This document shows, in pieces, positions 1,207 through 57,669 of a DNA stretch of 64,000 nt. The stretch is from IMG/VR virus record IMGVR_UViG_3300014043_000277. One strand, given 5' to 3'. How positions within the stretch are numbered: position 1 is the stretch's first letter; each line of letters starts with the position of its first letter. Below the pieces are notes generated by a model. It was not told where the DNA came from, did no database searches, and was given only the letters and a program-made list of their open reading frames with translations. The stretch is from a virus. Its lineage: Duplodnaviria > Heunggongvirae > Uroviricota > Caudoviricetes. Position numbers and translations under genes: made by a program.

Positions 1207-2709
1207 TCATCGCGCCTGCGGTTGTTGTTTTGATGTCATCACGAGGCGTTTCGCTACTTCCGTTGGAACAACCGCCTGAGCGAGAATAAAGAATGATTGT
1301 TCCAACTGAGGAACTTCTATTATCGCGCCGAGGTTCTGGTTGTTTGATGCGCCTGTTATCAGTTTCGGGAAACTTGGAACAGTTGTAAGCACATGAGGAA
1401 TCGGCAGATCATCAATCGGAACTGTCTTATCAATCAGCTGATAAATCTGATGCGTTGCGACACGCAGGATTTTAGTGATTTTCTTAGGTCCCATTCCGAC
1501 ATCTTTCATGCCTTTGTTAATGACGATGCCTACTTTTTCCAATGGGATTCCGAAACCTGATGATTCCTCTGGCGTGCATACATTCTGCATCCATTTAGTA
1601 GTATCCAATATTGATTTCAAATCCAAATCGGTAACATACAGGATTTTGTCCGCGATTGGATATATGACATCATAGATGACAGGATCAAGGAAGTACATCA
1701 CGGAAGTGTCAAGTATCACAATGTCATACATTGTAGCAAGAATGCTTATTACGCGACGATACATATCCGGTGGTGTATCCTCAACATAACGCGGGCTTTT
1801 CGGTGCGAGCAGCGCATCAAAAGCGATGAAATCGCCTTCCTGTCGTTTTGATTTCTGAACGATGTCATTGGTGATAAGGTTCCTTGCGACGGATTCCTTA
1901 TTAATATGAGGTTCCTGAGCGATGTTAATCATTGTCGGTTTGCTTGCGCCGAGAACATAGCCTAACTGTCCATCATAGATATCGCAATCAACAAGGCATA
2001 CTTTCAATGGTTGCTTTATTTTGCCTTGGCGAGCCGCCTCACGGGTTGATTTGCCGATTTCCTGAGCGAGGCTGAATGCGACGGTTGATTTACCGGAGCC
2101 GCCTTTCGCTGATGTAACGGTGATTATCGTTCCGCGTTTACCGAGCGTGTTAGTGAATGTGTCATCATCATCTTCATCTTCCGTGTCAAAATCAAAATCA
2201 TCACCTCGTTTATTTTCACGGACAACATCATTGATTGCTTCTTCCGGTGGAGTCAAACCGAGTTCATTAATGAAAATCTGAACGACATCAGGTGAGCTAT
2301 CACCTGAATTCACATAATCCTCAATCGCTTCATCAATTGAGCGCAGAATGTCATCAGCATCAATCCAATACACATGAGCGCCCTGATCGTTTTGCGCGTT
2401 CTGCGCTATCTGGCTTTCAATTTCATCTTTCGGTGTCGTATCGTCCGGGTCATTGAATGAAATGATTGCAACGAGTGCATATGGTGCCATGTCGGCACAG
2501 AACTGTTCAAATGTCTGATCGTGATGACTGGAATCATATAATGCTGGATCCAATATTAGCATTGGCGTCGTGTCATCAATGTTGCCATTGTCAAGATTAT
2601 CATAGAAATCCGCTATTTGCTCTGATGGAATCTGCCAATCCCAATCAGGCTGATTATCCTTGAAGAAATCATGATAATCCGGGCTTCCAATAACTGCTAC
2701 TTTTAACAT
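1207..2709 (-). CDS. CpaE/TadZ-like MinD/ParA-family pilus assembly ATPase with an N-terminal receiver-like region
   Basis: Deviant Walker A SAKGGSGKST, VCLVDCD and YDIVILDT; directly downstream of the CpaB-like gene. Confidence 0.75.
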   Translation of the reverse strand: MLKVAVIGSPDYHDFFKDNQPDWDWQIPSEQIADFYDNLDNGNIDDTTPMLILDPALYDSSHHDQTFEQFCADMAPYALVAIISFNDPDDTTPKDEIESQIAQNAQNDQGAHVYWIDADDILRSIDEAIEDYVNSGDSSPDVVQIFINELGLTPPEEAINDVVRENKRGDDFDFDTEDEDDDDTFTNTLGKRGTIITVTSAKGGSGKSTVAFSLAQEIGKSTREAARQGKIKQPLKVCLVDCDIYDGQLGYVLGASKPTMINIAQEPHINKESVARNLITNDIVQKSKRQEGDFIAFDALLAPKSPRYVEDTPPDMYRRVISILATMYDIVILDTSVMYFLDPVIYDVIYPIADKILYVTDLDLKSILDTTKWMQNVCTPEESSGFGIPLEKVGIVINKGMKDVGMGPKKITKILRVATHQIYQLIDKTVPIDDLPIPHVLTTVPSFPKLITGASNNQNLGAIIEVPQLEQSFFILAQAVVPTEVAKRLVMTSKQQPQAR

Positions 2710-2730
2710 GCTGGAAAATCAACCTTCCTT

Positions 2731-3951
2731 TCATTCAGTTGTTCCGGCGTTGTCAACGGAATCATCTGTTCGCTTGTTCGCCGCGTCATCAGTATCCTGA
2801 GCAGTGCTCTTCTTATTACGCTCTTTCGCTTTGTCAAGTGAGTCGTTCCATTTCTGAATAGTTTCCTTATCGTTTCCTGCCTGCTTAATACAATACTGCT
2901 TATCGGCATCCCAGCGTGAACCGAGATAATATGGTTCACTGAACAGGCTGCTGCACCATGTGATTTCAGCATTAGTCAGCTTAGGAGCACCATTCTTGTA
3001 TTTGATGGTTCCATCATCATTAAGTTCGCTTGCTGAAACATCATAAGGAACGCCGAATTCATTACGACGGACATCAAGGAATGTGTTATCAGTGCAATCA
3101 GCGGAATCAGCGTTCGCATCATCGCATAATGACGCGTTACGAGGCTGCATTTCATCACCGTTATAGGTGAATGTGCTGAACGCATACGCTTGCGCGTTCG
3201 GTTGTTGATACATGTTCTCACGTGGAGACATAACCAGTTTTATCTGTAATGATTGCAATGCTGCATGCAGCATTGCAATGTCTTTCGGTGGCATTGCAAC
3301 GAAATATTCCAATGATTGCCCAGTTGTTACAGTGGTTCCATCCTTTGCCGTCTCTGATGTTTTCTGGCTTGTAGTGAACAGGCACATGACATTGTAATAA
3401 ACGTAAGTGCCGCCCTGTCCCATGGTGACAGCGCCTTCCACTTCGTTACCGTCCTTGGATTCTTTCGCACCCATGCCGAGGATGTCGAAATAATCGCCAC
3501 GCATGATGTTGCCGTCAACTGCATCAGATGAATCCACGGTGAATGATGTTACTGCCCATTGATCGGAAACGCCATTATACAGGCTGGCGCGTCCGCCCGT
3601 ATTTGAATTGGTCAGGACATCTCCTGCGAGAAGATCATATTGCGCGTAAACCTGACCTGATTGAACATCAGATAATCCGATTGATTTCGGAGCGGTACCT
3701 TTCCTTGTTTTCACCGCTTGCATGTCATCAGCCGTTATTTGCGAATGCGCGGGAACATCTGTTCCGAGGACATAATATGTTTCAGTGGCACTGATGCTGC
3801 TGAAAAAAGAATATGTCAATCCAATGAGGACAACGCCGAGAATGACGATGATGAACAGGATTGGATTGCTGAATTTGCCTTTTTTGCCTTTGCCGCCGAC
3901 GCTTGAGCCGGATGACAGTTTATTTTTACTACTTCCGAGAATACTTGCCAT
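2731..3951 (-). CDS. CpaB/RcpC-like Flp pilus assembly protein (TM + SAF domain)
   Basis: N-terminal TM; SAF-like DVPAHSQITADDM...YAQYDLLAGDVLT; RcpC-like AVDGNIMRGDYFDI. Confidence 0.7.
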   Translation of the reverse strand: MASILGSSKNKLSSGSSVGGKGKKGKFSNPILFIIVILGVVLIGLTYSFFSSISATETYYVLGTDVPAHSQITADDMQAVKTRKGTAPKSIGLSDVQSGQVYAQYDLLAGDVLTNSNTGGRASLYNGVSDQWAVTSFTVDSSDAVDGNIMRGDYFDILGMGAKESKDGNEVEGAVTMGQGGTYVYYNVMCLFTTSQKTSETAKDGTTVTTGQSLEYFVAMPPKDIAMLHAALQSLQIKLVMSPRENMYQQPNAQAYAFSTFTYNGDEMQPRNASLCDDANADSADCTDNTFLDVRRNEFGVPYDVSASELNDDGTIKYKNGAPKLTNAEITWCSSLFSEPYYLGSRWDADKQYCIKQAGNDKETIQKWNDSLDKAKERNKKSTAQDTDDAANKRTDDSVDNAGTTE

Positions 3952-4040
3952 GATTCTGTAATATCATCCTTTCATTTATAAAAACGGATTCAAAATGTTA
4001 TCAGAATAATGAATATCCATTGATACAGGTATTCATTATA

Positions 4041-5114
4041 TTATTTATCATTTCTAACGGCATTATATTCAACAATGTTATCAAAAGTCCTGATTTCATC
4101 AAATGCAGGTTCAAGTGAATCGGATGATGGCTTCCACCATGCAATCAATGGCTGCAATCCATCATGACCACGATTATCCTTGTTTTTGCATGCTTTGCAA
4201 TCATTTGAGCATGACATTGGAATGACTTGTTTCAAACCATCCATCTGCCATGTGTTCCATGAAACCGCTGAATACAATTCACGGACATATGTAATCGATG
4301 GTTTCTTTTTGAATAATTCCTCATGCCATTCAATGATATCATTCACAATGTTCATTCTTGCGATGAGCAGGTTATCGCCTTGCCATTCATAAGCATAAGT
4401 TGCTTTCAATACAATCATTGCCAGCATCCGCCAGATTTCAGGTTTCAGCCATTCCTTGTTTTCGCTTATTACGCGCAGTTTCCTGTCCAATAATCCTGAC
4501 CGCATGAAACCATTGTTTTCATCATATACTGGAATGATTTCACCGGATGTCGTGTCATAACGCTGAGCGACATATGGCGCTTCCCCGCAGGTGATTTCCA
4601 TTCGTTTTGATAGGATGAATCTTATGCGTTCATTATCATCATTGAATGGCACTGGTTTCATGTTCGGAATCCATGATGTTCCATCAACATGTCCGAACAC
4701 ATGTTCTTGTCCGAGAATCCTATCATCCGCGAGATCATTCTGATATGAGCACACCCATGATGGCGTGAAAACCTCGGCTTTTGTTTTCGTCCGCGATTTC
4801 CGCGCTTCCTTGCTTTTCATGACACGGGTTTCAATATTAGTCAAATCATTGATTGTAATGGCATCATTGAACGCATTCCCATCATCATTCCCTGTCGCCC
4901 ATATGATTGGTTTCACGGTTATAATCGGTTTGATTTCAGGTGATTGCATGATGCCATTATCATCCTCATCATCGAATAATCCTTCTGCTTTCACATAATC
5001 ATTCATTTCATGCCATGATTTCATGTAATCATCATGATTACCAAGAACATGCGTTGATAATAATGATTCAAGGCATTTCTTATCGTCAGGCCATTTCATA
5101 ATAGTGTCAGTCAT
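4041..5114 (-). CDS. R-M 'subunit M'-like DNA methyltransferase N-terminal module
   Basis: AEVFTPSW, motif-I-like EITCGEAPY and YAYEWQGDNLLIAR; no NPPY motif seen. Confidence 0.6.
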   Translation of the reverse strand: MTDTIMKWPDDKKCLESLLSTHVLGNHDDYMKSWHEMNDYVKAEGLFDDEDDNGIMQSPEIKPIITVKPIIWATGNDDGNAFNDAITINDLTNIETRVMKSKEARKSRTKTKAEVFTPSWVCSYQNDLADDRILGQEHVFGHVDGTSWIPNMKPVPFNDDNERIRFILSKRMEITCGEAPYVAQRYDTTSGEIIPVYDENNGFMRSGLLDRKLRVISENKEWLKPEIWRMLAMIVLKATYAYEWQGDNLLIARMNIVNDIIEWHEELFKKKPSITYVRELYSAVSWNTWQMDGLKQVIPMSCSNDCKACKNKDNRGHDGLQPLIAWWKPSSDSLEPAFDEIRTFDNIVEYNAVRNDK

Positions 5115-6277: not shown

Positions 6278-7444
6278 TCATCTGCGGAATGGTTTCGGTT
6301 CATTGGAACCATATCGGATTGGTTGTTGAACCGGATTATTCATGTTTGATGCTTGCGTTGGATTCATTTGGAATTGCCTGTATTGTTGTATTTGAGGTTG
6401 ATTATTCTGTTGTAATGGTGTTTCCATTCTGTCAGCGACGCTCAAACCATAATCATTTCGAATGACGGCTCCCATTCCTTTAAGCGTGTTGATGCGTTCT
6501 TCCAATGGCGGATGCGTCGCGTTCAATGATTTCAAGCCTTTTATTCGCGGAATCCAGAATGCGAGCTGGCCTGCTTTCTGATTGAATGATTGTGCGGCGT
6601 CCGGATTGATGCTACCATCATCCATTGCGAGCTTATTCAATGCGTTCGCGAGAGCTGATGGATTTCGGGTGTAATCAACTGACATCATGTCAGCATTGGA
6701 TTCGCGTGTACGACTCATGTATAATTCTGTGATTTTCGCAAGTATCGGCGCGATGAGAAGGAACAGGAATGCGATTATGATTATGATCAACGCGATGGGA
6801 TTTGAACCGGAATTTGAATCATTGTCTTTTTTCTGTGAACGATGCGAACCATAACCATTCCCTGTTAAACGCAATGCCATTCCTGATATCGCTGCGGTGA
6901 ATGCAGTCAATGCCACCAGTGTTGTCATTGCCTCACTGTCGCCGGATGCGATATGTCCTATTTCGTGTCCGACAACACCTTGTAATTCCTCGCGTGTCAT
7001 CATGTTCAACAGTCTGTCCGTGATTATTATCCGGTTCCGTTCTTTATCGGATACGGCATAAGCATTGGATATCGGACTGTTCAACACTATCCATACTTCC
7101 GGCATTTTCACTTTCGCCGCGATTGCCATTTCCTGAACGACATCATATACAATGCCGTTATTCACGCGAATCATATTGCCATCAACGGCCCCCATGAGGG
7201 TTTTGCTTGCGCCTTTTTTGATTTTCATTGTTATCAATGCGGATAATACGAATGATATGATTCCGGTGATGGCAATGAAAACCGCTATTTCGCCATTACT
7301 TGAATTCACCACCATGAACAACACGATGAGAGCCGCTTCTATTGTCAATGCGAGAACCATGAAATTCATGAACCATGCTATTGCAATCGCTTTTTTAAGA
7401 TTCGCTATTTCCTGTCTGAAATCAGATGATGCCATTGTTCTCAT
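6278..7444 (-). CDS. htpX: HtpX-like M48 zinc metalloprotease
   Basis: TM segments, HEIGH (HExxH), SRTRE..AD and THPPLEERI; downstream of lemA. Confidence 0.88.
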   Translation of the reverse strand: MRTMASSDFRQEIANLKKAIAIAWFMNFMVLALTIEAALIVLFMVVNSSNGEIAVFIAITGIISFVLSALITMKIKKGASKTLMGAVDGNMIRVNNGIVYDVVQEMAIAAKVKMPEVWIVLNSPISNAYAVSDKERNRIIITDRLLNMMTREELQGVVGHEIGHIASGDSEAMTTLVALTAFTAAISGMALRLTGNGYGSHRSQKKDNDSNSGSNPIALIIIIIAFLFLLIAPILAKITELYMSRTRESNADMMSVDYTRNPSALANALNKLAMDDGSINPDAAQSFNQKAGQLAFWIPRIKGLKSLNATHPPLEERINTLKGMGAVIRNDYGLSVADRMETPLQQNNQPQIQQYRQFQMNPTQASNMNNPVQQPIRYGSNEPKPFRR

Positions 7445-33781: not shown

Positions 33782-34909
33782 TTATTCTTCTGTGTCATCA
33801 TTTGATGACTTATTAATTGCCTTCAATGCATCATCATCACCGCGTTCCAATGCTGCTTGCAGGATAGTCTGCGTATCGGCGGAACCAGTACTGTTCAAGC
33901 ATGCCAGCATGAGAGGTTCGTACTTGTCATACAGCCCGTTTTCATTCTCGCGCAGCATGGCAACTACTTTTGCTTTTCCTTGTGCAATTGTCTCGCCGGT
34001 TTCAGCATCCTTAATGAATGAACCTGATTTTTTCAGAATACCGAATTTAACACACAGGTCGAAAAGTTCATTTATTTTATCAACGCCGATACCATTCATA
34101 ATCCAGAATTCACCCTCACGCAAAGGCGGGGCAATTTTATTCTTCTTAACAACAACTTTCACTGGTGTTCCAATGAGTTCACCGGTTTTTGAATCTATTT
34201 CCGGCTTCTGCCGCGACACGCGAATACGTTGAGATGCAAAATACTTGATGGCATTTCCACCCATAGTGATATTTGGATTACCATACATTACACCGACATT
34301 AACTCTCTCTTGGTTAATGAGAATACATGTGGTTCCTGTTTTAGCAAGAGGCGATAGAATGCGCGTCATCATCCTTCCGACGAGTCTTGCCCTCAAACCA
34401 ATCTGATCCTTGTCAATTTCTCCGGCGAGCTCTTTCTCTGAAATCAATGCTGCCACTGAATCCAATACGATTATGTCCACGACACCGGATAGAATGAATT
34501 TCTCCATTATTGTCGCGGCCTGTTCACCTGATGTCGGACGACATACAATGAGTTTATCGATGTTCACGCCGAGTGTCGCGGCATAACGAGGATCAAGAGC
34601 CTGTTCCAAATCAATGAACACGGCATTGCCGCCATGTTTCTGGACATCCGCGATTGCATTCAATGCAAGTGATGTTTTACCTGACGCTTCCGGTCCATAG
34701 ATTTCAATGATGCGTCCACGCGGGAAACCGCCTCCCAACATGGAATCCACAACCCATGAACCGGTTGAAATTGTTTCCACATCAATGTTTCCATTTGCAA
34801 CCACAGCCGCGTCATCACCGAATTCCTTCTTGACATCCGCGACAATGGAATCGAATAGTTTCTGCCTGTCCGGTGTTGTCGCAGCAGTTGTTGATTTCTT
34901 AGCAACCAT
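33782..34909 (-). CDS. recA: Recombinase RecA (divergent)
   Basis: GGFPRGRIIEIYGPEASGKT, FIDLEQALDP, LDSVAAL, INQ and KNKIAPP. Confidence 0.95.
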   Translation of the reverse strand: MVAKKSTTAATTPDRQKLFDSIVADVKKEFGDDAAVVANGNIDVETISTGSWVVDSMLGGGFPRGRIIEIYGPEASGKTSLALNAIADVQKHGGNAVFIDLEQALDPRYAATLGVNIDKLIVCRPTSGEQAATIMEKFILSGVVDIIVLDSVAALISEKELAGEIDKDQIGLRARLVGRMMTRILSPLAKTGTTCILINQERVNVGVMYGNPNITMGGNAIKYFASQRIRVSRQKPEIDSKTGELIGTPVKVVVKKNKIAPPLREGEFWIMNGIGVDKINELFDLCVKFGILKKSGSFIKDAETGETIAQGKAKVVAMLRENENGLYDKYEPLMLACLNSTGSADTQTILQAALERGDDDALKAINKSSNDDTEE

Positions 34910-43174: not shown

Positions 43175-44362
43175 TTATTTCTTGCCCCGTTCAAAAGGAT
43201 TAGTGTTGAACGCATCGAATATTCTCTTATCATATGAATCAATGTGGACACAGGCGACATTATTATTGAAATCCTTCATTATGCAATCACCCTTATCGAA
43301 ATTAATCATGGATTGTGCGATGCCGACATCCTCCGGCAAATCGAATGATTCACGGACTTTCTCACCTTCCGCGATGGTTTTCACACGGAATGCGAATCGC
43401 GTTGAAATGCTGTTCTGCAATCCGAATTTGTCAATGTCATCCGCGTTCTGCGAAATGAGTACACATGCTGTGTTCAATGAACGTCCCAGACGGCATATTT
43501 CGGAAATCACCTGTCGTCCCATTTTGGTTGCAAGGACAGCCCAGCTTTCATCAATGATGACTGTTTTCGGCGGCGGAACACGTTTCTTGCCTTCCTCGTC
43601 ATGTCCATCATCCACACCAATCATGATGTTACGGATATAGTTCGTAACAAGGAACATGATTCCCATTCCGAGTCTGTCGTTAATCTGATAATCCTTCTCA
43701 TCCATGTTCGGATCAGGCATTTTCAAGCCGAGAAGGGTGATAATGGTTAATCCCTTACCCATTTTCATTGCACTCCCCTCATAATGATCAAAACACAGAC
43801 GTGAGAATTTCAATGGCTCAATCAGTTTCAATTGGTTGCCGAGAGCGTTAGCCTGCGGATCATTGCGGCGTGCAAGAAGCCTCTGCATGACGATTCTCAA
43901 ACTGGGTTTTTTCAATTTAAGGACATCCTCAACGATAGGTGTCAATGAGTTCCGCTGTTCACTTGTTAACGTCCCGGCGAATGTTTCAATGAGCGACATG
44001 ACAAGCAACTGCTGCTGAGCCGGTTCCTTCTCCAAACTGAACGGATCAAGAATGCCTGGTTCAACTTTCTTGTCATCAGCCAAATCCCATATGTTAATGT
44101 CTCCCAGATCGGATTGCAGGTTAAGAATGTTAACGGAATCGGCTTTCGGATCAAGATACACAGTTATTTTACCTGATAAGGTTGACTGATAAGCCATCAT
44201 CATTGAGAAGAACGATTTACCGGAACCCGGTGAACCTGAAACATACACTCCAGGCGGGTTGGATGATGCTATACTTGTATGCAAATCAAAAAACACCGGT
44301 GTATGATAACCGAGAATGGTTTCACCGATATACGGACCCATCCATTTTGTAGGTTTCCTCAT
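43175..44362 (-). CDS. VirB4/ConE-like conjugative ATPase, C-terminal ATPase half
   Basis: PVFFD, Walker A GSPGSGKS, YLDPK, Walker B IIDESW and GRSLN...ISQ. Confidence 0.8.
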   Translation of the reverse strand: MRKPTKWMGPYIGETILGYHTPVFFDLHTSIASSNPPGVYVSGSPGSGKSFFSMMMAYQSTLSGKITVYLDPKADSVNILNLQSDLGDINIWDLADDKKVEPGILDPFSLEKEPAQQQLLVMSLIETFAGTLTSEQRNSLTPIVEDVLKLKKPSLRIVMQRLLARRNDPQANALGNQLKLIEPLKFSRLCFDHYEGSAMKMGKGLTIITLLGLKMPDPNMDEKDYQINDRLGMGIMFLVTNYIRNIMIGVDDGHDEEGKKRVPPPKTVIIDESWAVLATKMGRQVISEICRLGRSLNTACVLISQNADDIDKFGLQNSISTRFAFRVKTIAEGEKVRESFDLPEDVGIAQSMINFDKGDCIMKDFNNNVACVHIDSYDKRIFDAFNTNPFERGKK

Positions 44363-48012: not shown

Positions 48013-48150
48013 GCAATATGAATATCATACAATGCAATAATCACATTAAGAATACAATACGTTAATATGAAAAACAAAAAATTAACAAGAACATAATCAG
48101 CATGACTACTACGAATGAATTCAATGCGAACATTTGAAAATCAATTTCGC

Positions 48151-48282
48151 GCGGATATTGCGAACTGCATCAACATGTCAACCTTATTCACTAAGACTCC
48201 GAATGTGAGTTCACGTAGTTGCAATGACAAGAACTCAACTAACAAGTCATATGTCACTGATATGAATAATACGCAATACTGA
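48151..48282 (+). other. Silent alternative pilin C-terminal cassette (inverted partial copy)
   Basis: Translates ADIANCINMSTLFTKTPNVSSRSCNDKNSTNKSYVTDMNNTQY*, homologous to the pilin C-terminus; no hydrophobic pilin N-terminus upstream. Confidence 0.8.
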
Positions 48283-48305
48283 TATGCGATTCGCATGAAC
48301 ATATT

Positions 48306-48350
48306 AAGCGGAACCGCACGGTGATTTTCCGTGCGGTTCCGCTTTTTTTT
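48306..48350 (+). terminator. Intrinsic terminator of the silent cassette
   Basis: 16-bp inverted repeat followed by a T8 tract on the plus strand. Confidence 0.75.
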
Positions 48351-48396
48351 GCTTTTTGTATTCAAAATGTATTCATGGATTCATAAGATTTTATGC

Positions 48397-48430
48397 AAAA
48401 AGGAACCTGCCGGTTAAGCAGGTTCTTTTT
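48397..48430 (-). terminator. Intrinsic terminator of the pilin gene
   Basis: GAACCTGC/GCAGGTTC stem with A/T tracts. Confidence 0.7.
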
Positions 48431-48448
48431 AATGCCATGAACTCAGTA

Positions 48449-48715
48449 TCAGTAATCCGTCTTGTTAGTGTCATATGAATGACCAGTTGAGTTCTTGTCA
48501 TTGCAAGAACGGGCGGTGACCGATGAGTTATGAGTGAATGAGGTTGACGTGTTGATGCAGTTCGCAACATCAGCACCCTTGCGTTCAGTTGATGCCATGA
48601 GCTTACCGAAAATGACCACAATGGCAACAAGCACCAGAGCGAGAATCATAACCGGACCGATGACAGATGCTTCAGCCTCATCCGAGGTGGCTTGCGCTTT
48701 AATGTAATCCATCAT
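48449..48715 (-). CDS. Flp/type IV-like pilin
   Basis: Short charged leader, 20-aa hydrophobic helix, small two-Cys C-domain; AAGGAG SD; adjacent to tadC. Confidence 0.7.
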   Translation of the reverse strand: MMDYIKAQATSDEAEASVIGPVMILALVLVAIVVIFGKLMASTERKGADVANCINTSTSFTHNSSVTARSCNDKNSTGHSYDTNKTDY

Positions 48716-48831
48716 GATGTTTTAATCTCCTTATTGTAATTGTAATTGAATGGAATATTTCGACCGCTATTTCTAGCTTAGTCTATTATATATCTATCAA
48801 ACTCGATTGTCAGTAGTAATAGTAGTAGTAA

Positions 48832-49064
48832 TTGACTTCCTCCCACGCCTGAAGGCGTGGGATTCCTACACCGTTCGCCTTAATGGAGGCTTGCGGTTCG
48901 GTGGGTTCCCGCATCATTGGCGTTAGCGTTGCGACTGGCGCAAGCCAGCCTACGGGCGTTTAATGACTCGGCTAGCCCAGCCGCGTCAAGAATATTCAAA
49001 GCAGCATTCCAATCACGATCCAGATATGCCCTGTATGAACTCACGCTTACTATGATCATGATTG
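48832..49064 (-). mobile_element. 233-bp internally deleted derivative of the tnpB IS (omegaRNA/right end retained)
   Basis: Begins CAATCATG after GCTAT; matches 24985-25010 then about 26115-26306; ends GGAAGTCAA; perfect right-end hairpin CCCACGCC/GGCGTGGG. Confidence 0.88.
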
Positions 49065-52230: not shown

Positions 52231-55200
52231 TCATTCCGCGTATCTTCCGAATTTCCTGCGACCTATCGCCTGTTCAAGTTCGAACATGAATTCATCGGAG
52301 CAATTCACTTTCAAACCGGAATCAACCTCTGATTTATAACCATCCTTATCCATGTGAATCATGAGCGGAATGTCACCGGGATGCTTTTTCGCTATTGAGC
52401 GAATATCCTTATATGCTTTCCTGTCCTGTTTGGTTAATTGAATCCATACCGGTATGCGTCCATTTGAATCCAATTCAACTTCCTCAAACGCCACTGCTTC
52501 CATGACATGATTGCCATTATAATCAATGGTGATGTTACCGACTATCACATACACATGATTCTGCTGTAATCCGGATGCCGTTCCGAACCTGGCTATCCAT
52601 TTTTCAGCAGGATAGCCTTGAATCGCGAATGGAATGGAATCCGTTTCCGATTCAATCGTGCCGCGAATCGCTTTTCTTCCTGTTCGCATTGTTTTCATTT
52701 CAATGCTGGCAATGCTTGCAATTACACGTGATGGACGGCGTTCATACCTGCCACTGCGATACTGGTTCAGTTTCATGTGCGCAGCGTCATTGACAGTGAG
52801 AATATTACCGTAATCATCATCGCTGATTTCATATGCTTTACGCATGAATTCCAATCCTTGGCCGAGATTTGACAATGGATGCCCGGAAACAGCCACTCCG
52901 AGACGCTTTTCCTCTTCCACGAGCCGTTGAATCCAATCCCAATCCTGTATGTCCGGAATATGGAATTCACCCATGCCATCATTATTGTCATCATCGTCAT
53001 CATCAAAATCAAACAGGCTTTCCTTACCTGCCGCAGATGCTTTTGATTCAGACTTGTAATAGTCAATGAGTTCATTTTCACATGCGATCATTCCGCGCCG
53101 TGAAACACCGAACTTGTCAAACGCACCCGCTCCGGCCAGTCCATCAATGAATTTCTTATTGATGAGTGATGCTGGCAATGAACGCATGAAATCATCAACT
53201 GACGTGTATTTGCCATCATGTTTCGCGCGGGCGGCGACGAATTCCTGCGCGGTTCCAATGCTGACACCTTTGATGCCGCTGATTCCGAATACGATATCAG
53301 GATCATCAGGTGATGTTTTCTTAACTGCGCTCACACCGACATCACTGTTGTCAATGTCAATCGCGCCGACTTTCAATCCTATTTCACGGACTTCCCTGAT
53401 GGCGTTCTTGACATCATCAACATCCTTGGATTTCCTGATTTTATCAGTGAGGACAGCAGCCATGAATTCAGCCGGATAATGGCATTTCAAATAAGCGGTT
53501 TCATATGAGATGATTGCATATGATGCGGCATGGGAATTATGAGACACGATTCCCTGCATGATGAAATTAGCCGGTCCGTCATGTTCCATTTCAATGTCAT
53601 ATACTGTCTGACGCATCGGTTTCCCTGATTCCAATGTTTTCGTCGGTTCAATGCTGATGATCCTGTCGCCATTGGAAACATGATGACGCATGAGCGCGGC
53701 GTCAATCGTGTCAATGTAATCCGCTGGTGTCATGTACACGAATGGAATGTCATCACCATACTTGTTATCAATGAAATATTGGCGACCGCGACGTAAACCA
53801 TCCATTTCAAAATAAATGCCATCAGCGTAGAAATCACAATATTTCACCTGCCCATCCTTATTAGTCAATGGCTTATGCAATTCAAAATCAACGCCACGGG
53901 ATAGCAAATATTCACCTGCCTGCGCTTCCACGCGGGAATCGCATACACGTCCATCGGAAAGGCGAGTCATGATTCCATAACCATGCAATGCTCCATTATC
54001 ATGAGCGTTCAAATGAGCGTAATACATCGCCTTGACGGAATTATCATTCCTATCAGGATGCAACCGCTGGATTGCCTGCTGATGAGCGCATCTGTCCTCA
54101 TATGATAAAGTTGACTGGTATTCTTTCATGCGTTCGCTGTTCACTTGCCGCGTATGCTCATCCATGCTTGCGATGAGCGCATTCTTGCGACGTGTTTCCA
54201 ATGTTTCCAATGGAAGGCGACGATTCCAATCGTCATCAATCATGAGTTCAGCGCCGACATGCAATGTTCCGTCATCAATGGTTCCATAACCTGCCGTCGT
54301 CAACAAGCGATGATTGCCGGTAACATTGCAGTATTTGCCGGATTCAGTGCGGATAGTGTAAGTGACCGCTTTCAATGGCTGTTTAGTGATTGATTTCACC
54401 TTATGCGGTTTAATGGAACCATCCGGATACATTGACAGGATGCTGATGTTCAATGGCGCACCTGATTCATGTTCACGATAAATGTCCTCAACGCGCATTT
54501 TCTCATAATCATCATCACCAATGGAAACGCAAACCAATGTCCTGCCGTCAAAACAGGAATTGAATCCGTATTCGCCAAATTTCTTCAAATATTCCCATAA
54601 TTCCGTGGTTTCCTCGCGCGGATAGCCTTTCGCGACGGCATTATTGATGAATTTTGGTTCCATTGCATTCAGGACATCCATTTTCTTATGTCCCATGCCT
54701 TTACGCAGGGCATCGGCGTCACCCCATGAGAAGTCGCTCAGAAAACGTGATATGTTCATTATCTGTTCTTGATATAATACCAAATTTTCGGTATTTTTAA
54801 GAACATCATCAACTGGACTGTTTTTGAACACTTTATCCAATCGTTCGTTGATGACATATGCCGGCGCTTTACCGGCGGCGCGATCAGCATACTGGTTATG
54901 CGCGTCCATTCCCATCGGGCCTGGACGATACAATGCGACGGATGCCTGAATGTCCTCGAATTTTTTCGGATGCATTCGTTTGAACAATGCTTGCATTCCC
55001 GCGCTGCTGAGCTGGAAGACGTTAAGCGTCTCGCCGCGTGAAAGCATGTTATAAGTCGGTTTGTCATCCATCGGACCATGCACGAGAGCGTCAATGTCCA
55101 CGGTTTTGCCATCATGTGTATGCATGATGTTCGCAAGCGTGTCACCGACAATATCCAAATCAGACAGGGATAGGAAATCCATTTTGATGAGTCCAATGGA

Positions 55201-57669
55201 TTCAAGTTCCTCATAAGTCCATTGACAGCATGATGACCCCCAGGGTTTTGATGGCTTATGCTTATAAGTCATTGGCGCGGCATCGGTTATCGGATGCGAT
55301 GACATGATGATTCCGCATGCATGCACGCCGGTTGTTTTAATGCGTCCTTCAATTGCGCGTGCCGCCGCTATCACTGGTTTCCATTTTTCCTCTTCCATCA
55401 GTTTGCGGAATTCAGCCGCTTGCGCATAGATTTTTGATTTCTCATCATAAATGTCGGATAATGACGCTCCCTGATTCGGTTTGATTTCAGGAATGAGCTT
55501 AGTCGCCTTATTGGATTCGAACACGGGAATGTTGTAAATTCTCGCCATGTCCGCAAGCGCGGTTTTGGATAGGAATTTGTTGAAAGTGATGATGTTCGCG
55601 ATGTGATCCTCCCCATACTTATCCTTGACGTAATCAACAACCTCATCACGCCTGCTTGCAGCGAAATCAGTGTCCACATCAGGCGGTGACAAACGCTCAG
55701 GGTTAAGGAAGCGTTCGAACATCAGGTTATGGCGGATGGGATCCGTATCGGAAATGTTCAAATCGAATGCTATCTCACTGCCGCCAACTGAATTATGTAC
55801 AGTGCGGTTTTCAATAGTGTAATTATGGACGCCTTCAACTTGCAAATCATACACTTTACCGGTGTAATTGAAATGACGGACTGATTTGACAATGAATGCT
55901 GATTTTCCAACATTATACACATAATCATCAGTCAAATCATCATAAGCGATTTCATCATTATTTGTATTTAATGCAATGATGCCATCATCATTAGTGAACG
56001 ACTTGATTGATGCGTCACTCTCCAATGCGTTCAATGCCATGAGTTCACGATGAGTCCTATAACTTACGAAATCGCCATTCTTATATGAATGGAATAAATG
56101 CGATGTTCCGTCATCATCAATTAGTGTGTCATCATCTGAGTGCGAGCCATCCCATGAATTATTCGCATTATCGGCAGGGCCGAGAACCACGCTGCCATCA
56201 TGCAGTTCCTGTGCCTGCATGAAACCATTGTCAGCATCGAATAGCATGTGATCGGCAGTGCAGCGAATGATAGTTCCGTCATTGAATGTTATTTCAACGC
56301 AATCCTCGTTATTCACATCATATTCGAATACTTTTTCAACCACATGATATGTGGCGTCATGAGTTTGTGCTTTTGAACCAACTTTAACTTTTTCAATTGG
56401 CGTCATGATGCCATTCCCAATACGAACACGAGAACCTGGTAGAAAACAGCCGCGTCCATATCCCACTCTGATGCCGTTATTACGCGCCCAGTCAATGTAA
56501 TCCTTGACGACAAGCATGTATTGGACGAAATTGTTATCAGTGAACACGGGGAGTTCATGATTTATGCGTTTCACCGCCTCCGCTTTTACTTCCGGCGATG
56601 CGTCCGAGCGCTTCTTTTTCAAACCTTCCTTGATTTCATGCTTGAACCATCCGATTTCATCATAACCATCCGGGATTTCAACTTCCGGACGCAAATCGGA
56701 ACGCAATTTGAATTCAATGTGCTCAACCATGTCCGCGATGCGCATGGTGTTGTCAACCGCTTCCGGATGTTCATGGAACACCGGGATTGACAGCATTTCA
56801 TCCCGTGTTTTCAAATAATATTCATTACCATTGAACGCGAAACGCTTTCCTCCCTCATCATATGGCAAGTCATACATTGTCGCTTTTGAATTGGCGCATA
56901 GCATTTCCTCATGATGCGGCGCATCCTTATGATTGCAATAATGCGAATCATTAGTCGCGAGTAACGGCAGATTCAAATCATCCGCGAGTTTCAATAGTTT
57001 CGGGATGGCGACACGTTCAATGTCCTTGCCTTGCGCCATGCTGTGATCCATGAGTTCAACGAAATAGCGACCTTCGAAAATTTCACTCATTCGACGCGCG
57101 TAATCATAAGCCTGCTCATCCTGACCGAGACGGAACCGTGTTTGGATTTCACCTGATGGACAACCAGTAGTTGCTATTAGTCCGGCGTTATGCCTTGCCA
57201 GCATGTCCAAATCCATGCGTGGTTTCATATAATAATTCCCCTCGCCATCCGGTAAGTCAAGATGATTGAACTCATTGCCTTCCATGCTTGCCTCGCGGAC
57301 AAGCGCATACAATGAATGCAATCCCTCATCATTCATCGCCCATAATGTCATGTGCAGGTAAGCGCCGTTACCGGAAACATCAATTCCCTCCTGTCCCGGT
57401 TTGCCATAACGGACAGGCTGATGGACTTTGGCCCCCATTGGATTCACTGGTGCCACATACGCCTCAATTCCCGGTATTGGCTTAATTCCGGCTTTATTGC
57501 ATTTCTGGATGAATGAGAACAATCCGCATACGTTACCATGATCGGTAAGTCCGAGCGCCGGTTGTCCCATTTCCACGGCGCGTGCAATGTATTCATCAAC
57601 TGTTCCGAAACCATCCAATAGGCTGTAATCGCTGTGATTATGCAGATTAACGAAATTATCCACTTCCAC
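52231..57669 (-). CDS. dnaE: DNA polymerase III alpha subunit with two inteins (about 1253 aa spliced)
   Basis: PHP HNHSDYSLLDG, GRG|S, FERFLNPER.SPPDVDTD, KMDFL, LYRPGPM and YGFN.|SHAASY. Confidence 0.95.
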   Translation of the reverse strand: MEVDNFVNLHNHSDYSLLDGFGTVDEYIARAVEMGQPALGLTDHGNVCGLFSFIQKCNKAGIKPIPGIEAYVAPVNPMGAKVHQPVRYGKPGQEGIDVSGNGAYLHMTLWAMNDEGLHSLYALVREASMEGNEFNHLDLPDGEGNYYMKPRMDLDMLARHNAGLIATTGCPSGEIQTRFRLGQDEQAYDYARRMSEIFEGRYFVELMDHSMAQGKDIERVAIPKLLKLADDLNLPLLATNDSHYCNHKDAPHHEEMLCANSKATMYDLPYDEGGKRFAFNGNEYYLKTRDEMLSIPVFHEHPEAVDNTMRIADMVEHIEFKLRSDLRPEVEIPDGYDEIGWFKHEIKEGLKKKRSDASPEVKAEAVKRINHELPVFTDNNFVQYMLVVKDYIDWARNNGIRVGYGRGCFLPGSRVRIGNGIMTPIEKVKVGSKAQTHDATYHVVEKVFEYDVNNEDCVEITFNDGTIIRCTADHMLFDADNGFMQAQELHDGSVVLGPADNANNSWDGSHSDDDTLIDDDGTSHLFHSYKNGDFVSYRTHRELMALNALESDASIKSFTNDDGIIALNTNNDEIAYDDLTDDYVYNVGKSAFIVKSVRHFNYTGKVYDLQVEGVHNYTIENRTVHNSVGGSEIAFDLNISDTDPIRHNLMFERFLNPERLSPPDVDTDFAASRRDEVVDYVKDKYGEDHIANIITFNKFLSKTALADMARIYNIPVFESNKATKLIPEIKPNQGASLSDIYDEKSKIYAQAAEFRKLMEEEKWKPVIAAARAIEGRIKTTGVHACGIIMSSHPITDAAPMTYKHKPSKPWGSSCCQWTYEELESIGLIKMDFLSLSDLDIVGDTLANIMHTHDGKTVDIDALVHGPMDDKPTYNMLSRGETLNVFQLSSAGMQALFKRMHPKKFEDIQASVALYRPGPMGMDAHNQYADRAAGKAPAYVINERLDKVFKNSPVDDVLKNTENLVLYQEQIMNISRFLSDFSWGDADALRKGMGHKKMDVLNAMEPKFINNAVAKGYPREETTELWEYLKKFGEYGFNSCFDGRTLVCVSIGDDDYEKMRVEDIYREHESGAPLNISILSMYPDGSIKPHKVKSITKQPLKAVTYTIRTESGKYCNVTGNHRLLTTAGYGTIDDGTLHVGAELMIDDDWNRRLPLETLETRRKNALIASMDEHTRQVNSERMKEYQSTLSYEDRCAHQQAIQRLHPDRNDNSVKAMYYAHLNAHDNGALHGYGIMTRLSDGRVCDSRVEAQAGEYLLSRGVDFELHKPLTNKDGQVKYCDFYADGIYFEMDGLRRGRQYFIDNKYGDDIPFVYMTPADYIDTIDAALMRHHVSNGDRIISIEPTKTLESGKPMRQTVYDIEMEHDGPANFIMQGIVSHNSHAASYAIISYETAYLKCHYPAEFMAAVLTDKIRKSKDVDDVKNAIREVREIGLKVGAIDIDNSDVGVSAVKKTSPDDPDIVFGISGIKGVSIGTAQEFVAARAKHDGKYTSVDDFMRSLPASLINKKFIDGLAGAGAFDKFGVSRRGMIACENELIDYYKSESKASAAGKESLFDFDDDDDDNNDGMGEFHIPDIQDWDWIQRLVEEEKRLGVAVSGHPLSNLGQGLEFMRKAYEISDDDYGNILTVNDAAHMKLNQYRSGRYERRPSRVIASIASIEMKTMRTGRKAIRGTIESETDSIPFAIQGYPAEKWIARFGTASGLQQNHVYVIVGNITIDYNGNHVMEAVAFEEVELDSNGRIPVWIQLTKQDRKAYKDIRSIAKKHPGDIPLMIHMDKDGYKSEVDSGLKVNCSDEFMFELEQAIGRRKFGRYAE
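53536..54555 (-). other. DnaE intein 2 (340 aa, class 1) with a PD-(D/E)xK/Vsr-like endonuclease
   Basis: CFDGRT start, VTGNHRL block B, VYDIEM...SHN followed by +1 Ser; internal DSRVE...CDFY...YFEMDG. Confidence 0.88.
55792..56448 (-). other. DnaE intein 1 (219 aa, class 1)
   Basis: CFLPGS start, CTADH block B, VYDLQVEGVHNY...VHN followed by +1 Ser. Confidence 0.9.

Follow-up and report, generated by a model that had tools for sequence, protein, structure and literature searches.

A probable two-cassette system for varying the tail of a small pilin-like protein on a giant extrachromosomal gut element

What is an inverted, partial second copy of a gene's 3' end doing only ~170 bp away from the gene itself? 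The question arises in a window of 64,000 nucleotides (the whole stretch of DNA analyzed here), where a minus-strand gene for a small pilin-like protein is faced, on the plus strand, by a silent tail cassette. The sequence-only reading had proposed a pilin with an inverted silent C-terminal cassette, a candidate for shufflon-like or Neisseria-like variation, and both ORFs are present as it described them. Taking these features together with related loci in other assemblies (designated by L numbers), we consider it probable that gene and cassette together form a two-cassette system, through which a small, single-helix, pilin-like protein on a giant extrachromosomal gut element varies its presumably exposed C-terminal 40 residues. 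The locus and the two genes of the element that matter most to its interpretation are laid out as follows.

48449-48715, minus strand: expressed pilin-like gene, an ORF of 88 aa with an acidic 17-aa N-terminus, one hydrophobic helix, and a 40-aa Cys-loop tail (H type)
48575-48715, minus strand: constant part of the pilin-like gene, codons 1-47, outside the recombining segment and nearly invariant in 28 relatives
48533-48574: repeat arm inside the pilin-like gene, codons 48-61 (Cys1 block), an inverted match
48151-48192: partner repeat arm at the start of the silent cassette, matching at 38/42 in the window and 42/42 in L005
48193-48532: core of the invertible segment, holding both variable tails, both terminators, and the spacer; a block reversed in relatives
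48151-48282, plus strand: silent tail cassette (K type), 43 codons and a stop, without a conserved start codon or a ribosome-binding site of its own
48219-48240: Cys2 homology block on the cassette side, 22/22 with 48485-48506
48485-48506: Cys2 homology block on the side of the expressed gene, 22/22 with 48219-48240
48403-48425, minus strand: predicted terminator T1, which goes with the H tail and lies 3' of it in the window, L005, L003, and L012
48306-48344, plus strand: predicted terminator T2 (16-bp stem), which goes with the K tail and lies directly 3' of the expressed K tail in L004 and L010/L011
48785-48813, minus strand: strong promoter-like site of the pilin-like gene, CTGACA-17 nt-TATAAT (11/12 matches), its upstream region kept in relatives
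48058-48150: non-coding stub separating the cassette from the T2SSF gene, within a 248-bp stretch (48058-48305) missing from L001/L002
47101-48012, minus strand: T2SSF (TadB/TadC-like) membrane protein, the downstream neighbor (Pfam PF00482, E 5.4e-8)
33782-34909, minus strand: RecA of the element (Pfam PF00154, E 6.7e-85)

The pilin-like gene has a Shine-Dalgarno sequence (AAGGAG) ~10 nt 5' of its ATG, and the facing plus-strand ORF runs from 48115 to 48282, its last 43 codons paralleling the tail of the pilin-like protein. In a tblastn search of the tail against the whole 64 kb, the facing cassette was recovered with 63% identity (E ~1e-13) and no further copy of the tail was found in the window. 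The reading frame and stops upstream of the cassette homology vary between relatives, so the silent cassette is not a gene of its own. The repeat counts given earlier, 29/31 for the inverted match at the first cysteine (48154-48184 versus 48541-48571) and 22/22 at the second, are exact; the first repeat extends further, to 42 nt (48151-48192 versus 48533-48574, 38/42), with a sharp start at the Ala48 codon and an equal codon register on both arms. The observation that each tail end has its own terminator likewise stands (T1 reading from 48425 to 48403 on the minus strand, T2 from 48306 to 48344 on the plus strand), as does the proposal that inversion at either repeat pair would preserve the frame: flipping the outer repeat in silico between the repeat midpoints gave an intact 90-aa ORF followed directly by T2, and flipping the inner repeat kept the reading frame and left the ORF uninterrupted.

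Several observations concern the DNA around and between these features. A (TAC)n tract at 48813-48835 (minus strand) abuts the -35-like hexamer of the pilin promoter and differs in length among relatives, comprising 2, 5, 6, or 7 units and being interrupted (3+2) in the window (compared across the window, L001, L004, L005, L010-13, L017, L019, and L022); the -35-like hexamer is also variable among relatives. Such changes in length might tune expression via strand slippage. Just upstream of the promoter, at 48832-49064, lies a 233-bp mini-IS made up of a TnpB 3' end and RNA region, which must be a recent insertion because it is missing from L019, a contig 99.3% identical on both sides of it. 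The inter-terminator spacer inside the invertible segment is an insertion landing pad in relatives, where it has received a full TnpB IS (485-493 aa) in some and a ~55-bp palindromic insert in others (inserts were seen in L010, L011, and L013-L015 at about 2380-4050, and in L012, L017, and L022).

The relatives of the pilin-like protein, gathered as 30 clusters in a word-index search, are almost invariant over residues 1-47, and their last 40 residues are hypervariable save for two Cys and a few Asn/Ser; hypervariability across the whole family is concentrated in the tails. An exhaustive profile search of 1.8 billion representatives yielded only 20 matches, which are small proteins with a short leader, one helix, a K-G-A-D...C-I motif, and a second Cys. 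A Flp-like A-S-L-V-E-Y/T motif before the helix was found in some distant members only (E 1e-4 to 1e-5), and one distant relative, P0041, lies on a 5.4-kb contig that ends just past the gene and is uninformative as to context. The earlier assignment to Tad/Flp-type pilins was not confirmed by any family model. None of the Pfam, NCBIfam, or PHROGs models scored above threshold for the pilin-like protein, with Flp1_like the best match at a sub-threshold E of 0.08 (12.8 bits versus a cut-off of 33.5); atlas leads for the protein had scores <0.9; and the G/XXXXEY prepilin-peptidase motif before the helix is absent from the protein and its close relatives. Of possible Tad machinery, the T2SSF gene is adjacent, and neither a T2SSE ATPase nor an A24 peptidase was detected in the window, the nearby ATPase being a TcpF/VirB4 C-terminal domain. 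The neighboring T2SSF gene and the sub-threshold matches lend weak support to a Tad/Flp pilin, and "pilin-like" is used here as a working label because of the architecture of the protein and its T2SSF neighbor, not to denote family membership.

The AF2 model of the protein (mean pLDDT 58) places a helix at residues 3-55, with a low-confidence fold for the tail, and the charges on either side of the helix give no clear prediction of a topology with the tail outside. A bacteriocin precursor, to which a weak YxzE-like match (E 0.05) pointed, was rejected as a lead, the invariant half of the protein being a membrane helix and not a leader peptide. N-x-S/T triplets (read in 48449-48574 and 48151-48282) occur at 4-5 per 40 residues in both tails, several of them kept across variants, and may be sites of glycosylation of an exposed tail.

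The window has a G+C content of ~43-46% and codes mainly on the minus strand. Its genes include those for Pol III alpha, GyrB, DnaG, RecA, a 5'-3' exonuclease, NrdD/NrdG, NucS, an FtsK-like ATPase, a ParA-like ATPase, an S26 peptidase, and a TnpB IS. Pol III alpha (52231-57669, 1812 aa) carries an intein and, amid GyrB, DnaG, RecA, and NrdD/G, forms part of a replication set that is unusually complete for a conjugative element. Synteny of the T2SSF gene with the pilin-like gene is kept in L001, L004, L005, L012, and L022-24, and the other neighbors of the locus are a 697-aa acidic protein, a TcpE-family protein, and a TcpF/VirB4-type conjugation ATPase domain. This ATPase (43175-44362) consists of the C-terminal ATPase domain only, its 395 aa matching positions 468-810 of an 813-position TcpF/VirB4-type model.

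A phage reading is unsupported, since PHROGs gave no match, phage structural or other, for the neighbors of the pilin-like gene. Megablast gave no match in plasmid and phage collections; against plasmids, tblastn returned no match for the pilin-like protein and distant Tad genes only for the T2SSF protein; and no relative was found in IMG/VR. The relatives are contigs from human-gut and other gut metagenomes, up to 176 kb long. Their sole cultured link is a 7.3-kb contig (44% G+C) of Bifidobacterium ruminantium DSM 6489, which carries an 81%-identical pilin-like gene in a different gene context. The host of the locus is probably Gram-positive. As a candidate for the element family, the Bifidobacterium megaplasmid pMP7017 was set aside, no search having linked it to the window and its papers describing no such locus.

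Comparison of the related loci revealed the segment in both orientations. The H tail is on the gene and K silent in the window, L005, and L012; in L004 and L010/L011 the K tail is on the gene, H is silent, and the order of the terminators is swapped, H normally traveling with T1 and K with T2. Codons 1-47 are colinear in all relatives, and window positions 48149-48576 align in reverse with L004 2140-2572 (434 nt, 85.7%) between colinear flanks. A clean flip distinguishes L005 from L003, contigs of one study whose samples have neighboring BioSample numbers: their flanks are identical at 1,686/1,686 nt, the orientation of the segment is opposite, and the H tail with T1 (159 nt, 1 mismatch) adjoins the gene in L005 but the stub in L003. 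Contig L003 ends within the segment, and L019, with 99.3% identity to the window, breaks off in the repeat arm (position 48565); contig ends inside the locus are the pattern expected where two continuations coexist. Such contig breaks, and the opposite orientations in near-identical elements, hint that both orientations may coexist in one population. Polymorphisms in the outer 9 nt go with the flank whichever way the segment points, and the innermost base goes with the loop, which places the crossovers within a 32-nt stretch, and the repeat arms are identical or nearly so in L005 and L010/L011. Of the natural inversions that had been foreseen, the one between the outer repeats is thus represented among relatives; no inversion was recognized as one at the inner Cys2 pair, and the mosaic alleles that might reflect it could equally stem from conversion.

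A different kind of change separates L011 from L013, which are near-identical and differ only at 2183-2258 (the variable tail), at 3 bases in the inserted IS, and at the final alignment base (an end effect). K is expressed and H silent in L011; in L013 both sites carry one and the same 132-nt H tail, and T2 still follows the expressed copy. From this between-sample comparison, we infer a one-way copy in which the silent tail overwrote the expressed one over a tract of 76-132 nt. The expressed side is the same in L014 and L015, which are independent assemblies, and the H-tail-to-T2 junction, which has only 5 nt in common with its alternatives, recurs in both. Mosaic alleles, anticipated from the sequence and sought by comparing related elements, are also present: in L001/L002 and L022 the expressed allele joins a K loop to an H-like end and T1, and the window's silent K loop is the one expressed in L001 (96% over 110 nt).

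The same pilin-like ORF is found on a second element (L006-L009, L026-L031, and B. ruminantium contig39, L032, at 6895-7161), where the gene order is a UvrD/Rep_1 protein of 1353 aa, a lipoprotein, the pilin-like protein, another 88-aa membrane protein, and a 405-aa protein. Only the 270-bp ORF is common to the giant element (L010/L011) and the second element, at 99.3-99.6% identity, and the window's T2SSF and TcpF proteins found no match in the B. ruminantium assembly. On these alignments, there is a gene-sized exchange of the 270-bp ORF between two different elements. Because two recombination events, the clean flip and the one-way copy, part element pairs that have 0-3 substitutions over 1.7-4 kb, exchange outpaces mutation.

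Whether the silent cassette is maintained is answered differently by different relatives, and the expectation that it would stay in frame usually holds. Eight loci (the window, L003, L004, L005, L010, L011, L012, and L013) have silent cassettes that are open through the stop despite 15-20% divergence. Values of dN/dS (Nei-Gojobori) are 0.42 for silent tails, 0.37 for expressed tails, and 0.14 for the constant part, where dN is lower by a factor of 5. The cassette is decayed in L017 and L022, which share a deletion and two frameshifts, and is missing in five related loci, namely L001/L002, where the 248-bp stretch containing it is absent, and the more distant L018, L023, and L024, which never show a cassette. 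Being absent in five loci and broken in two, the cassette is dispensable and can decay, and its distribution among relatives indicates that the tail-switching device is limited to one sub-clade and can be lost.

The following mechanism would accommodate these results. The pilin-like protein stands at the head of a Tcp-type block of conjugation genes on a giant extrachromosomal element present in gut metagenomes. Its promoter, start codon, and first 47 codons are fixed, and codons 48-88 with their terminator lie within a segment of ~430 bp bounded by the 42-nt inverted repeats, with a promoterless second tail and its own terminator facing the expressed tail from the segment's other end. Reciprocal recombination in the repeats would flip the segment and join the other tail in frame, and non-reciprocal recombination would replace the expressed tail with a copy of the silent one, the homology blocks in question being the protein-conserved Cys1 block, the Cys2 block, and the C-terminal end. 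These exchanges would take place via homologous recombination, by the RecA of the element or the host, instead of a dedicated invertase, with the element's RecA at 33782-34909 as candidate enzyme. The tail would be surface-exposed, and its variation would presumably bear on recognition by partners, phages, or antibodies.

As to the mechanism of exchange, we lean slightly toward homologous recombination over a distant site-specific enzyme, because the homology blocks are where every kind of event falls: inversion, conversion, mosaicism, deletion, and inter-element exchange. Consistent with the sequence-only reading, the element has a RecA and the ~54 window ORFs scanned (PF00589, PF00239, DEDD_Tnp_IS110, Transposase_20) include no serine, tyrosine, or IS110-type recombinase, the relatives reaching 176 kb; of the additional cassettes and invertase envisaged elsewhere on the replicon, neither was found within the 64-kb window, which has the single cassette and no invertase. 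The 32-nt crossover stretch fits a homologous or a site-specific mechanism alike, and a 42-nt repeat is short for RecA-dependent exchange, which counts against the RecA route. We regard as tentative, and on balance unlikely, a programmed inversion of the shufflon or Moraxella type, in which a tyrosine, serine, or IS110/Piv-like enzyme, supplied by the host or by another part of the element, would act on a core site in the 42-nt repeat. The sharp start of the repeat, its (nearly) identical arms in L005 and L010/L011, the confinement of crossovers to 32 nt, and the clean flip between L005 and L003 would all suit such an enzyme, and distant master invertases are known in gut Bacteroides. Yet no such enzyme was found in the 48 kb on one side or the 15 kb on the other, and the pilin and tail-fibre invertases known to us adjoin their segment. 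Conservative invertases, moreover, make neither the one-way copy of L013 nor a gene-sized exchange between elements, and the repeat is fully explained by protein conservation: coding constraint alone suffices, since the repeat starts at Ala48, where protein conservation starts, and the block is kept in the cassette-less L018, L023, and L024.

That no dedicated enzyme was found is also what one would expect had the 3' end of the pilin-like gene merely been copied in inverted orientation in one lineage, to recombine by homology without function and be in the course of loss. The restriction of the cassette to one sub-clade, its deletion in L001/L002, and its breakage in L017/L022 speak for such an incidental partial duplication; we nevertheless think it improbable, given the eight open silent cassettes with dN/dS like that of expressed tails, a correctly oriented terminator on each tail, exchange faster than mutation (two events, in pairs with 0-3 substitutions over 1.7-4 kb), and the fact that the tails are the hypervariable part of the whole family. 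Least probable by far is an assembly artefact, in which metagenome contigs wrongly joined at the inverted repeat would mimic inversions and conversions. The relatives are indeed all metagenome contigs, two of which break within the locus, but the 42-nt repeat is shorter than the read length and than the k141 of some contig names, and an opposite orientation in diverged elements (86% identity inside the segment) cannot be a one-population chimera. In addition, L010 and L011 are independent assemblies in agreement, and an L013 junction sharing just 5 nt with its alternatives would hardly recur by mis-joining in L014 and L015. A diversity-generating retroelement was rejected, no reverse transcriptase having been found and the variation being cassette-like rather than adenine-specific.

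What emerges is, as far as sequence comparison can tell, a compact, recombination-driven tail-switching locus that is not previously described in such a protein family or element type. Gram-negative pathogens and IncI plasmids provide the classic cases of surface proteins switched by inversion or by the copying of cassettes; to our knowledge, hardly any such case has been documented in mobile elements from Gram-positive commensals of the gut. The locus is very compact, with a 0.43-kb segment and 40-codon cassettes that each have their own terminator, and public metagenomes already hold natural "before and after" pairs for an inversion and for a conversion. Within an otherwise unknown protein family, it singles out the 40 residues on which selection acts, and it offers a way into the host range, or the exposure to phages and antibodies, of a family of giant, uncultured elements. 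It is also a test case for whether short, coding-constrained repeats, together with RecA, suffice for rapid switching when no dedicated invertase is involved. A bolder version of the homologous-recombination reading, which we hold to be possible but doubtful, is a recombinase-free antigenic variation on a conjugative giant element of gut bifidobacteria, in which the element's RecA would drive flips and one-way copying among the expressed gene, the inverted silent tail, and the second full copy on a co-resident smaller element. If this were true, recognition by mating partners, phages, or IgA would be retuned, and the locus would become the first example of a pilE/pilS-like system on a Gram-positive mobile element.

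Among known systems, pilin inversion in Moraxella involves an invertible segment of ~2 kb with an adjacent piv gene, unlike the segment here, which is ~0.43 kb and shows conversion in addition. No Piv (IS110/IS492-family) recombinase was found next to the segment or within the 64-kb window. The Q/I pilin inversion of Moraxella bovis and M. lacunata by Piv, as it is summarized in PMC4073114 (Marrs 1988, 1990), nevertheless resembles the present locus in having a single segment with a junction within the coding region, so that the N-terminus is fixed and two C-terminal parts are swapped. In the shufflon of R64/IncI plasmids, characterized by Rci, sfx repeats, and PilV (cited in PMC9881135), inversion sets recipient specificity. 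The likeness to our locus lies in an in-frame exchange of C-terminal segments by inversion in a pilin-like protein of a conjugative element; the parallel that had been drawn goes no further, as there is one segment with one silent cassette here, 19-bp sfx repeats are missing, neither an Rci-type recombinase nor a PilV N-terminal domain was found (among the window ORFs and by Pfam on the pilin-like protein, respectively), and the host is not enterobacterial. Since the recombinases and domains of the shufflon and Piv families were sought and not found, the locus is not a member of either.

Gene-altering programmed inversions have been surveyed more widely, with "pilin" annotations 8.4-fold enriched among predicted targets (Milman 2023, PMC9881135), and partial intergenic invertons have been described as well (Chanin 2023, bioRxiv 10.1101/2023.03.11.532203). 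As in those loci, a full gene here faces an inverted partial homologue, with repeats that overlap the coding sequence. The surveys, however, covered bacterial chromosomes and assumed enzyme-mediated inversion, whereas the present locus belongs to an uncharacterized giant element known almost only from metagenomes and undergoes conversion in addition.

In the pilE/pilS system of Neisseria gonorrhoeae and N. meningitidis, promoterless silent copies without the N-terminal constant region supply variants, and Cys blocks flank a hypervariable loop. The locus described here differs in having one silent cassette where Neisseria has many, in that the cassette is inverted and lies ~170 bp from the gene, in that the protein is not a type IVa pilin, and in its location on a mobile element of a probable Gram-positive host; with the cassette so close and inverted, reciprocal inversion also occurs, unlike in pilE/pilS. 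The Neisseria-like layout with conserved Cys blocks around a variable loop, which had been pointed out from the sequence, is real. The silent partial copy has no promoter, start codon, or N-terminal region, its homology beginning at codon 48; conserved Cys1 (38/42) and Cys2 (22/22) blocks enclose the variable loop; transfer from the silent to the expressed site appears to have been one-way, judging from L011 versus L013; and a RecA-type mechanism would be the favored one. Because the one-way conversion in L013 is not something that a conservative invertase makes, the comparison with Neisseria fits better than that with the shufflon, and it is pilE/pilS that, by layout and apparent conversion, comes closest to the tail-switching locus among known systems.
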